Assembly (NCBI RefSeq): GCF_003334385.1
Contig: NZ_QOWN01000095.1
DNA from: Escherichia coli
GTDB lineage: Bacteria; Pseudomonadota; Gammaproteobacteria; Enterobacterales; Enterobacteriaceae
DNA length: 3,126 nucleotides
Strand: one strand, 5' to 3'
Shown here: positions 1 through 1,867 of the stretch, piece by piece
How the letters are laid out: every line of letters begins with the position of its first letter
Numbering within the stretch: the stretch's first letter is position 1
Notes under the pieces: generated by a model
What the model was told of the DNA's origin: nothing
Database searches by the model: none
Seen by the model: only the letters and a program-made list of their open reading frames with translations
Made by a program: the position numbers and the translations under genes

Positions 1-1867
1 GTACATTCACCAGTCCCTGACGCTGCTGAAGCAGTTCATTCCCCAGCCCCAGCAGACGGTTGAATTCCGTATGCTGAACATTCATCTGCAGCAATGCCTG
101 GTATGCTCTGTTCTGCTCTGCTGCCTCCTCGCGTATCCTCGCCACACGGTTGTATTCCAGTGACGCCAGAGCTTCCTGTACAGACTTCGCCTTTTCCTGC
201 ATCTGTGTCAGTCGTGACTGTTCAACCGCCAGTTTGCCAGTTGCCTCCGCAAGGCCGTGGGTTATAATCTCCACACCTGAACCACCCTGTGGATTTTCCT
301 GCAGCCAGCGCTGATAGTCAGCAATCTGTGTTTTCAGTCCCCGGACTTTACTTTCCTGCTCAGCAATCAGACGATTCTGCTCTTCCAGTGCCTCGCGGGT
401 TTTACCCTCATTATCAGCCAGTTCCGGAAGGGTCATTCCCGGTACCTTTGCCCGGATTTCATCAATCGTCGATGCATACTGACGGGCGGACTCCCTGGCC
501 TGTTCCTGATTCTGGTACACCGTGTACCAGGCACCGGCTCCCAGCATCAGTAAACCGGGTATCCCGCCGACAAGCGAAAGCAGGGATGCCGCGCCACTTT
601 TCAGCATTCCCGTAACCGACGTGGCATTCTCCAGCGCCTTCCCCGAGGCCGCCACCGCCTGATTCGACTGTACCAGTGCGGCATTGGCCACAATCATGGC
701 CCGGCGTTTTGCGACGGCATTCTGTGTGGCCAGCGCCTCCGCACTGCTATTTCTGGCCAGTGCAAGTTCAGCCTGTGCCAGTTGCCAGGCACGTTCTGCC
801 GCCAGCGCGTCAGCTGCCGCCTTACGCTGCACCTGAACAGCCGCATCTGCCTGTGCGGCTGCAAGGGCAACCGTCCCGGACTTCGCCGCGATCAGCTCTG
901 TGGTGGCCTTTCCCACGCCTGCGGCCATATTGCCAAAGTACCGGGCCACCCCGACGGCAACCAGCGCCCCCGCGGCTGTTGCCACATTATCAATATTACC
1001 GGCAACACCGTTCAGCACGCCGGAGAGCGTTTTCGTCGCTCCGCTGGCTTCATTCGCGCCACCCACCCAGGCCATAAAGGCGTTTTCCACCTTTGTGATC
1101 CCGTCAGAGACCGTTTCCGGCATGGCGGCATATTCATCACGCAATACCCCCAGCTGGCTGATTAACGCAGGAACGACTTTATCCGCCGTCAGTTTGCCGT
1201 CGTCCGCCATCGCCTTAAGGTCTTTACGGGCCACGCCCATACCCGCAGCCAGTGCACGTACGATCCGGTCTCCGCTTTCATTGACCGAATTAAATTCCTC
1301 ACCGCGTAACACACCCTGTGCCAGCGCCTGGCTGAACTGGGTGATCACCGAGCCCGCCTCTGCCGTACTGGCACCGGAGATTTTCAGCCCCGTGGAAATG
1401 GCCTCCGTCACCTTCAGCACATCATCAGCACTGTAGCCATATTCACGCATTGAGGCTGCCGAGCGGGCAAACAGGGCCGCATTATCTGAAAATGCCGTGC
1501 CCGTCCGCTGGCTGATATCCATCAGCACTTTCTGTGATGACGAAAATTCATCGGATGACTGCGACGCCTGTTTCAGTCGGGCATTCACGGAACTCCATTC
1601 ATCGGCCAGAGAAATCAGGTGTCCGGTGGCAAAGGCACCTGCAAATGCCCCCGCCGTTCCGGCAGCTGAAGCGCGGATTTCCGTCAACTGGCTGTTCAGC
1701 TCAGCCAGGGCGCGTCGCTGCTCCCGGGCGACTGCGGCAGCCTGACGCCCGCCATTCTGCAGGGTCCGGTAATATTCACTGCCCATGCGGGAAGCCCGCT
1801 GGATCTCCGACTGGAATGACTGCGAATTTGCCGAAATTTTGATAATCAGTTCACGTAACGTCGCCAT
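1..1867 (-). CDS. Phage tail tape measure protein, N-terminal ~622 codons; partial, C-terminal end lies beyond the window start
   Basis: Minus-strand frame is open from ATG at 1867..1865 to position 2; I checked 2..1020 codon by codon on the plus strand and found no stop, and hand-translated the rest. An in-frame TGA sits immediately upstream of the ATG (plus 1868..1870), so this is the first possible start. GGAG Shine-Dalgarno at plus 1876..1879, 8 nt before the ATG. Translation begins MATLRELIIKISANSQSF and contains SQALAQGVLRGEEFNSVNESGDRIVRALAAGMGVARKDLKAMADDGKLTADKVVPAL, which matches the conserved tape-measure N-terminal domain as I remember it. Followed by Ala/Gln-rich helical low-complexity sequence and hydrophobic segments. 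Sits directly downstream of the G/T chaperone pair as in lambda. Confidence 0.85.
   Translation of the reverse strand, partial: MATLRELIIKISANSQSFQSEIQRASRMGSEYYRTLQNGGRQAAAVAREQRRALAELNSQLTEIRASAAGTAGAFAGAFATGHLISLADEWSSVNARLKQASQSSDEFSSSQKVLMDISQRTGTAFSDNAALFARSAASMREYGYSADDVLKVTEAISTGLKISGASTAEAGSVITQFSQALAQGVLRGEEFNSVNESGDRIVRALAAGMGVARKDLKAMADDGKLTADKVVPALISQLGVLRDEYAAMPETVSDGITKVENAFMAWVGGANEASGATKTLSGVLNGVAGNIDNVATAAGALVAVGVARYFGNMAAGVGKATTELIAAKSGTVALAAAQADAAVQVQRKAAADALAAERAWQLAQAELALARNSSAEALATQNAVAKRRAMIVANAALVQSNQAVAASGKALENATSVTGMLKSGAASLLSLVGGIPGLLMLGAGAWYTVYQNQEQARESARQYASTIDEIRAKVPGMTLPELADNEGKTREALEEQNRLIAEQESKVRGLKTQIADYQRWLQENPQGGSGVEIITHGLAEATGKLAVEQSRLTQMQEKAKSVQEALASLEYNRVARIREEAAEQNRAYQALLQMNVQHTEFNRLLGLGNELLQQRQGLVNV

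Follow-up and report, generated by a model that had tools for sequence, protein, structure and literature searches.

How siphophages pass their DNA across the inner membrane of the host is still an open question. In phage lambda, gpH* forms a trans-envelope channel, and the Ur-lambda authors name gpH residues 116-140 as the most favoured transmembrane candidate of gpH; the membrane role of this stretch is putative, the membrane-spanning parts of the channel being described as undetermined (PMC12617516). Moreover, the tape measure protein (TMP) of lambda is labelled during injection by TurboID fused to inner-membrane ManZ (10.1101/2025.11.03.685801). Hydrophobic segments of the T5 TMP, pb2, have been proposed as a membrane channel (PMC10038345). 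For TP901-1, deletion of one hydrophobic region of the TMP had little effect, and chaperone recruitment was favoured over membrane insertion (PMC5099701). Injection by HK97 needs inner-membrane PtsG and periplasmic FkpA, a requirement determined by the TMP according to the summary of Cumby 2015 given in 10.1101/2025.12.01.691526. Outside the phages, the T6SS effector Tde1 has an apolar, Gly-rich motif overlapping a predicted transmembrane segment and needed for target-membrane translocation, and sequences related to the Tde1 glycine zipper are found in the C-termini of Burkholderia TMPs (PMC10240207).

In this study, we analysed a stretch of 3,126 nucleotides from Escherichia coli (the window), the minus strand of which is the tail module of a lambdoid prophage; all features described below lie on this strand unless stated otherwise. 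Positions 1..1867 hold the N-terminal 622 codons of a TMP gene (translation of 1867..2; PHROG 339, E = 5e-231; Pfam). The product carries a TMP_3 domain (PF20155, residues 83-272, 1052..1621, E = 2e-58; PDB relatives 9occ_M and 8rk3_A) and a Phage_HK97_TLTM domain (PF06120, residues 411-621, 5..637, E = 5e-56) and is 68% identical to HK97 gp16 over residues 1-570 (BLASTP, E = 0). A preliminary description of the window had taken the gene for a TMP gene, and these matches bear this out: the protein is a member of the HK97-type tail length tape measure family. The direct BLASTP alignment with gp16 stops at residue 570, and identity to the HK97-type TMPs of HK75 and HK544 falls after about residue 480. 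The complete TMP, known from a prophage in E. coli SCU-104 that is 99.5% identical, measures 1088 amino acids, of which the window encodes residues 1-622. It is a long, mostly alpha-helical protein with a lambda-type C-terminal domain; its C-terminus, in the part beyond the window, matches lambda gpH chain 8iyk_H (E = 1e-17), and lambda gpH 496-850 is homologous to its C-terminal third.

The gene order V, G, T, H is that of HK97. ORFs, PHROGs and the RefSeq annotation of the 99.5% identical prophage place the TMP gene downstream of a major tail gene and of the frameshifted chaperones G/G-T, and upstream of M/L homologs. Tail assembly chaperone G lies at 2220..2642 (ORFs, PHROGs; RefSeq start at 2594) and is a candidate partner for shielding the hydrophobic zones of the TMP during assembly. 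The reading frame of tail assembly protein T, expressed as a G-T fusion, follows at 1915..2196 (ORFs, RefSeq annotation, PHROGs, slippery site). G has the slippery sequence A AAA AAG at its end as the -1 frameshift site; the canonical lambda site GGGAAAG matches only once, within the TMP gene, which is no more than chance would give. HK97 carries the superinfection-exclusion moron gp15 between T and H, whereas the window lacks it. The T-H spacer, which gave no match in a consensus terminator scan, only holds a stable terminator-like hairpin upon folding.

The main hydrophobic segment of the TMP, Z3, comprises residues 424-451 (SGAASLLSLVGGIPGLLMLGAGAWYTVY; 515..598) according to translation, hydropathy and family alignment, and the PF06120 model starts just ahead of it and takes it in. 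The peptide quoted in the preliminary description, KSGAASLLSLVGGIPGLLMLGAGAWYTVY, is exact and represents residues K423-Y451 (515..601, minus-strand translation); the interval 521..595 given for it corresponds to residues 425-449 within this peptide. The uncharged run is present but longer than the approximately 22 residues reported, extending over 31 residues from S424 to Q454, with a hydrophobic core of about 26 residues (A426-Y451). The best 19-residue Kyte-Doolittle (KD) window, residues 426-444, reaches 1.79, above the threshold of 1.6 for a membrane helix. For Wimley-White octanol and Hessa sums the threshold is a value below 0; Z3 gives a Wimley-White sum of -4.5 to -6.1 kcal/mol, the sole negative window among the 622 residues, and a simple Hessa translocon sum of +2.9 kcal/mol, which speaks against a membrane reading. 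On the same scales the membrane helix of HK97 gp15, our control, is stronger throughout (KD 2.43, Wimley-White -15.1, Hessa -1.5). Z3 is thus uncharged, long enough for a membrane helix (at least about 19 residues without charge) and acceptable by two of the scales, but only marginally hydrophobic and far below the control; the earlier label of a typical transmembrane helix is partly supported, Z3 being a possible one. It is slightly more hydrophobic than lambda gpH 113-131. Since its hydrophobic moment is low (0.17), Z3 is apolar all round and not one-faced. Column counts define an aromatic end, W447-Y448-T-V-Y451 (515..529), which is followed by a conserved polar QxQEQARxSA. Two plus-strand ORFs over Z3 (289..615 and 522..662) were interpreted as shadows, on the antisense strand, of a gene whose domain matches are at E = 1e-56.

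On the single sequence Z3 is unremarkable, because the TMP is rich in Ala, Gly and Leu. When the 622 residues were shuffled, 31% of the shuffles reached KD 1.79, 24% reached the Wimley-White value of Z3 and 7.7% yielded a run of 31 or more uncharged residues. As neither hydropathy nor run length is significant alone, we set the single-sequence statistics aside and turned to the family, represented by 110 sequences at 50% identity. In an alignment of 41 full-length sequences, the 21-mer at residues 428-448 ranks second in conservation within the 1088-residue protein (0.62 vs a protein mean of 0.36); no other 21-mer is free of charged residues, and none has a higher family-mean hydropathy. Of just nine columns conserved to at least 90% in this unbiased full-length alignment, three are G434, G435 and G438, and all three glycines are present in 42/42 sequences. 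Columns 429-448 hold no charged residue across 42 divergent sequences, including relatives below 50% identity, and the C-terminal columns are well kept (Y448 in 33/42, W447 in 20/42, Q452 in 34/42, A457 in 36/42). Moreover, Z3 stays conserved between phages in which the flanking coiled coil has been exchanged, across the cassette boundary. At the family level Z3 is decisively far beyond chance; the stretch is real and strongly conserved. That it is a chance product of Ala/Gly/Leu-rich composition with no specific role, as the matching shuffles might suggest, is extremely improbable, the family alignment ruling this explanation out by the conservation of the window, the invariant glycines, the charge-free columns and the persistence of Z3 across a recombination boundary.

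Four hydrophobic zones are found at fixed places within the HK97-like TMP family, Z4 lying beyond the window. Variation in number and position between phages, as proposed earlier, holds between TMP families but not within this one. Z1, a Gly/Ala-rich zone of low charge (residues 61-88, ..ASAAGTAGAFAGAFATGHLISLA; 1604..1687; hydropathy, family alignment), lies just before the TMP_3 domain. Z2 (residues 294-319, NVATAAGALVAVGVARYFGNMAAGVG; 911..988) has about 14 apolar residues and then R309, an arginine conserved in most relatives. A second hydrophobic stretch had been placed at 914..982; it exists, at 911..976 (AAGALVAVGVARYFGNMAAGVG, residues 298-319), but it is charged (R309) and much less hydrophobic than Z3 (KD 1.24, positive Wimley-White sum). 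Z2 is not membrane-grade. For an Ala-rich linker (residues 320-423; 599..910) AlphaFold2 (AF2) predicts an antiparallel helical hairpin, and Foldseek gives hairpin-shaped matches. The predicted turn, an AF2 loop at residues 371-376 (ARNSSA; 740..757) whose flanks have a pLDDT of 92-98, lies roughly halfway between R309 and G434, and AF2 puts Z2 and Z3 at the two ends of the long hairpin. In the AF2 run on a homolog the turn is about 6 residues off the midpoint; the exact register of Z2 and Z3 is only partly supported. Both flanks of Z3 are helical and Ala/Gln-rich in the AF2 model, in agreement with the preliminary description, and the region is all-helical and non-globular, not a soluble globular domain. 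Foldseek searches with both AF2 models gave generic antiparallel hairpins only and no match at E <= 0.001. PDB relatives found by sequence cover residues 34-397 and 675-1088, none of them lying over Z3; of the JBD30 TMP the last 33 residues alone are modelled. By sequence comparison, the hairpin linker behaves as a cassette exchangeable between phages: it has at least two forms that differ in length by 17 residues, the 125-type of HK97 and the window and the 108-type of HK544 and Stx phages, further length classes exist, and window positions 576..922 gave no DNA alignment to Stx1 phage.

In the middle of Z3, the motif G434-G435-I-P-G438 (554..568; glycines in 42/42 sequences) is a predicted helix break. 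AF2 models Z3 as a helix, a break at LVGGI (residues 432-436) and a second helix, and the homolog run, as an independent prediction, likewise breaks the helix at the GG motif. The pLDDT is below 50 at this motif and over Z2, which speaks against a membrane reading. If the predicted break is real, GGxPG leaves two apolar parts, of about 8 and about 14 residues, neither of which alone would span a bilayer. Z3 has no full glycine zipper of the GxxxGxxxG type, which takes three small residues at i, i+4 and i+8, the central one being Gly; Z3 has one GxxxG, G434-G438, flanked by L430 and L442, and about one third of the relatives (GGPAGA type) carry (G/A/S)431xxxG435xxxA439. Residues 424-451 are best modelled as a conserved, moderately hydrophobic, Gly-rich helix-kink-helix element of the HK97-family TMP.

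Among the known systems, HK97 gp16 has Z3 at the identical position and in near-identical sequence, with the motif LLSLVGGLPGILMLGAGAWYTMY. The lambda gpH stretch 113-147 is, like Z3, uncharged and Gly/Ala-rich with an internal Pro, ends in AWYQ and has a similarly marginal hydropathy. Unlike Z3, however, it precedes the N-terminal TMP domain, and its positional counterpart is Z1. The best profile match of Z3 to gpH does fall on the hydrophobic stretch of lambda; its hhalign probability is 2%, and the match is therefore unusable as homology. The TMP of T5 resembles ours in that an apolar stretch of pb2 is proposed to insert in the host membrane and to provide a DNA channel after tube expulsion (PMC10038345), but this stretch comprises 46 residues in two helices near the C-terminal cleavage site, the outer membrane is the one proposed and the protein family is unrelated. 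The TP901-1 TMP shares internal hydrophobic regions and a largely helical build, and the first of its regions is essential for infectivity (PMC5099701). In contrast to the phage studied here, TP901-1 has a Gram-positive host and two such regions with three predicted spans each, and its authors lean to chaperone recruitment. The Tde1 motif is similar to Z3 in being Gly-rich and apolar, whereas it consists of tandem GxxxG repeats, which in TMPs are C-terminal and hence comparable to Z4, beyond the window.

Several roles could account for the conservation of Z3. It could be a conformational hinge, GGxPG giving the TMP the freedom to bend or to refold, extended while in the tube and a hairpin once ejected, with incidental apolar flanks. 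Conservation in the region peaks at the three glycines, the GG motif is exactly where the helix is broken in both AF2 runs, and the motif sits at the base of the predicted hairpin; however, a hinge has no need of 20 charge-free flanking columns, of a conserved aromatic end or of QxQEQARxSA, and we regard this explanation as very doubtful. A role confined to assembly or packing, in which Z3 binds the chaperones G/G-T or forms the buried core of a TMP oligomer in the tail tube and never enters a membrane, is unlikely but has more to be said for it. The G and T genes with their -1 frameshift site are directly upstream of the TMP gene, one hydrophobic region of TP901-1 is dispensable for infection, chaperone recruitment being what its authors proposed (PMC5099701), resolved TMP C-termini form a coiled coil in which hydrophobic residues are buried (PMC10038345; PMC11445458), and marginal hydrophobicity together with a high Gly/Ala content suits tight helix packing. 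Yet 20 charge-free columns in 42 divergent sequences are stricter than is usual for a coiled-coil core, the aromatic W-Y-x-x-Y end is unusual there, the moment of 0.17 makes Z3 apolar all round rather than on one face, and TMPs do reach membranes in lambda (PMC12617516; 10.1101/2025.11.03.685801) and T5 (PMC10038345). A membrane role and an assembly role of Z3 are not mutually exclusive.

Z3 is plausibly the best candidate for the part of the TMP that enters the host inner membrane in DNA injection, and on balance we lean towards the reading that it is buried during assembly and enters the inner membrane during injection as part of a TMP oligomer. In the assembling tail and the virion, Z3 would be buried in the core of the TMP bundle within the tail tube or covered by the G/G-T chaperones. 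Once the tail tip opens, the TMP would be expelled into the periplasm and refold, and Z3, as one element of the oligomer, would insert into the inner membrane from its periplasmic side. Several copies might then pack via a small-residue face (G/A/S at 428, 431, 434/435, 438 and 443-446), possibly beside a host transporter, as has been reported for the HK97 TMP and PtsG, and through the inserted oligomer the DNA would be able to cross the inner membrane. Because Z2 is at about the same distance as Z3 from the tip of the hairpin of about 2 x 55 residues, it would be the neighbour of Z3 at the membrane, shorter and interfacial. A more far-reaching proposal, which we regard as speculative and unlikely, is that Z2, hairpin and Z3 form one module, an antiparallel coiled-coil stalk with two apolar segments side by side at its open end. 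Its mode of insertion would be that of the hydrophobic helical hairpin in a pore-forming toxin, and the swappable stalk would set the inner-membrane host factor (PtsG, ManYZ or other) needed by the phage and the superinfection-exclusion proteins able to block it.

For annotation, Z3 is an expected and ordinary TMP feature, and the new detail is modest. Within the HK97 family, its three invariant glycines, 20 charge-free columns and aromatic end pick it out as the most constrained element of the central region. This makes Z3 a precisely defined site for mutagenesis in HK97, a phage for which genetic tools as well as PtsG, FkpA and gp15 phenotypes already exist.

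According to ORF calling, the minus strand carries all genes of the window, namely the 3' part of the major tail protein gene with its Ig-like end (2612..3126), the tail assembly chaperone gene G (2220..2642), the T frame (1915..2196) and the first 622 codons of a tail tape measure protein (TMP, running from 1867 to the edge of the window). Prophages in E. coli chromosomes share 99.5% identity with this DNA, and Stx-converting and related lambdoid phages share 94-97% across 78% of its length. The complete TMP, found in E. coli SCU-104, comprises 1088 residues. Pfam assigns residues 83-272 to TMP_3 and 411-621 to Phage_HK97_TLTM, and identity to HK97 gp16 is 68% across the N-terminal 570 residues.

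A preliminary description proposed a membrane-spanning segment in the TMP. The main peptide quoted there was recovered exactly at K423-Y451 (window 515..601), and its coordinates fall inside this interval; the uncharged stretch is present, but measures 31 residues (S424-Q454) instead of about 22. The apolar core of this segment (Z3, residues 424-451) spans 26 residues (A426-Y451). A second peptide was likewise found, at residues 298-319 (window 911..976) in zone Z2 (residues 294-319), but it contains the charged R309 and reaches a Kyte-Doolittle score of just 1.24. Since Ala, Gly and Leu abound in the TMP, Z3 is no more than expected by chance on this single sequence: 31% of 20,000 shuffles matched its hydropathy; an uncharged run as long arose in 7.7%, and the Wimley-White sum was matched in 24%. 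The case for Z3 beyond chance thus rests on its relatives.

Searching 1.84 billion representatives yielded a small TMP family of 110 clusters (50% identity), of which 48 had E <= 1e-10. Of its 41 representatives with 900 aa or more, nearly all have a hydropathy peak at the position homologous to Z3 (near 424-451), and most possess three further hydrophobic zones, near residues 61-88 (Z1), 294-319 (Z2) and 925-968 (Z4). In a full-length alignment of the SCU-104 protein with 40 representatives 990 aa or longer, in which hydropathy played no part, residues 428-448 rank second in conservation among all 21-residue windows of the TMP (0.62 versus a mean of 0.36); they form the sole window devoid of charge in every sequence and the one with the top family-mean hydropathy. 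Just nine columns are at least 90% conserved, including G434, G435 and G438. Local alignment (n=42) yields L-x-L-[VLI]-G-G-x-x-G-x-x-M-L-[AG]-A-[GA]-A-[WIV]-Y-x-x-Y-Q as the motif, followed by conserved polar QEQARxSAxxYA. Judged from these aligned sequences, family conservation excludes a chance origin of Z3.

Membrane-likeness was assessed by three simple scales: Kyte-Doolittle (threshold 1.6), Wimley-White octanol and a position-independent Hessa sum, the sums on the latter two scales being crude. Z3 exceeded the Kyte-Doolittle threshold (1.79, top 19-residue window), gave favourable crude Wimley-White sums (-4.5 kcal/mol over 19 residues, -6.1 over 23), being the only negative window among 622 residues, and an unfavourable crude Hessa sum (+2.9). 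The membrane helix of HK97 gp15, used as control, scored 2.43, -15.1 and -1.5, and the best windows of the lambda gpH hydrophobic stretch within 100-150 scored 1.59, -2.2 and +3.7, respectively; the gpH span is predicted by 'some, but not all' programs (PMC12617516). Z2 and Z1 failed all three scales. The helical hydrophobic moment of Z3 is low (0.17), hence it is apolar all round and not amphipathic. From the three scales and their calibration we therefore regard Z3 as a marginal Gly/Ala-rich apolar stretch, which resembles post-translationally inserting segments more closely than a classic Sec-type anchor.

Among four phage TMPs compared, Z3 is nearly unchanged and the preceding coiled coil is replaced. 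Compared to a Stx1 phage, window DNA is 97% identical at 923..3126 and 70% at 1..575, while 576..922 (residues 316-430) does not align with the TMP gene of that phage and resembles the HK97/HK75 version. Conserved hydrophobic zones therefore bracket exchanged DNA, and 576..922 is a recombination cassette bounded by Z2 and Z3. The AlphaFold2 model of residues 275-480 (35-sequence alignment) is all-helical, with helices 277-370, 377-431 and 437-477 separated by a loop at 371-376 (ARNSSA) and a break at 432-436 (LVGGI); confidence is 92-98 near the turn and below 50 over Z2 and the glycine motif. No soluble globular domain, which the preliminary description held to be incompatible with a span, was present in it. 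Foldseek returned no significant match to the model; antiparallel coiled-coil hairpins superposed best, e.g. the colicin E2/E3 receptor-binding domain (2.7-3.0 Å, 107-114 columns), so what is confidently modelled is a hairpin. Its turn lies nearly at the exact midpoint of R309 and G434. Of the 28 sequences with any Gly/Asn-Thr/Ser helix-breaking dipeptide, 22 have one at most 4 residues from the midpoint (about 4 at random), a count that is supportive and not a probability, as the sequences are related. For a homolog with 167-residue spacing, a second run gave a confident turn (pLDDT 95-97), about 6 residues away from the midpoint, a break again at the GG motif and again hairpin-like Foldseek matches. 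The modelled residues between Z2 and Z3 thus likely form a hairpin. The distance from the Z2 arginine to the Z3 glycines is discrete across relatives (107/108, 111, 114, 122, 125, 128, 156, 164, 167); a number of these values differ by multiples of 14 or 28, the pattern expected for a coiled-coil hairpin whose two arms lengthen by whole heptads.

The general picture of TMPs at membranes is supported by published work. The trans-envelope channel of lambda is formed by gpH* (PMC12617516), and during injection the lambda TMP was the sole phage protein robustly labelled by TurboID-ManZ (10.1101/2025.11.03.685801). A 46-residue apolar stretch of T5 pb2 was proposed to insert into a membrane (PMC10038345), and HK97 needs PtsG and FkpA for injection, a requirement that depends on its TMP (Cumby 2015, as summarised in 10.1101/2025.12.01.691526). 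We slightly favour a model in which Z3 would be buried in the tube or beneath the G/G-T chaperones before ejection and would afterwards enter the inner membrane within an oligomer, packing by its small-residue face, with Z2 as its neighbour at the interface. The main rival, that the hydrophobic zones serve chaperone binding or bundle packing alone, seems rather unlikely to us; such a role has been argued for TP901-1 (PMC5099701). It can coexist with a membrane role. GGxPG might also possibly act as a pure hinge, which leaves its charge-free flanks unexplained.

Several neighbouring features were observed. The heptamer A AAA AAG (2223..2229, minus) directly precedes the G stop codon TAG (2220..2222), and a -1 slip leads straight into the T frame; by sequence it is the expected programmed G/G-T frameshift site, used here instead of the lambda-type GGGAAAG. 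The 47-nt spacer between T and TMP (1868..1914, minus) holds a stem-loop (1888..1909; -14.6 kcal/mol, z = -2.4) with a U run after it, an element that a consensus terminator scan did not flag. HK97, HK75 and HK544 carry the superinfection-exclusion moron gp15 and a terminator at exactly this site, whereas the window has the terminator-like element and lacks the moron gene. Outside the window, the SCU-104 prophage carries a gene annotated as porin OmpC (895..2058 of L002) between the post-TMP tail gene and the gene for minor tail protein L; this porin gene looks like a moron within the tail operon. Z4 of its TMP (about 925-968) is a very Gly-rich, low-charge stretch (..SMSGAGGFIGSIGDWLGGAV..) in the C-terminal third, a region homologous to lambda gpH; it resembles gpH 691-712 near the gpH* cleavage site as well as the Gly-zipper C-termini of TMPs that have been discussed in connection with T6SS Tde1. 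In its C-terminal part (2612..about 2900, minus), the major tail protein matches Hoc-like/Ig-like decoration families (PHROGs); an Ig-like appendage is usual on lambdoid tail tube proteins.

TMPs are known to carry hydrophobic segments that putatively insert into membranes, and by sequence Z3 falls within an existing Pfam family and is common to HK97 gp16. In the accessible literature we found no description of its three invariant glycines, of Z3 as the part of the TMP central region under the strongest constraint or of two hydrophobic zones flanking a predicted hairpin swapped as a cassette. The invariant glycines, the constraint on Z3 and the hairpin cassette would not surprise a specialist; they are useful leads for HK97 genetics.
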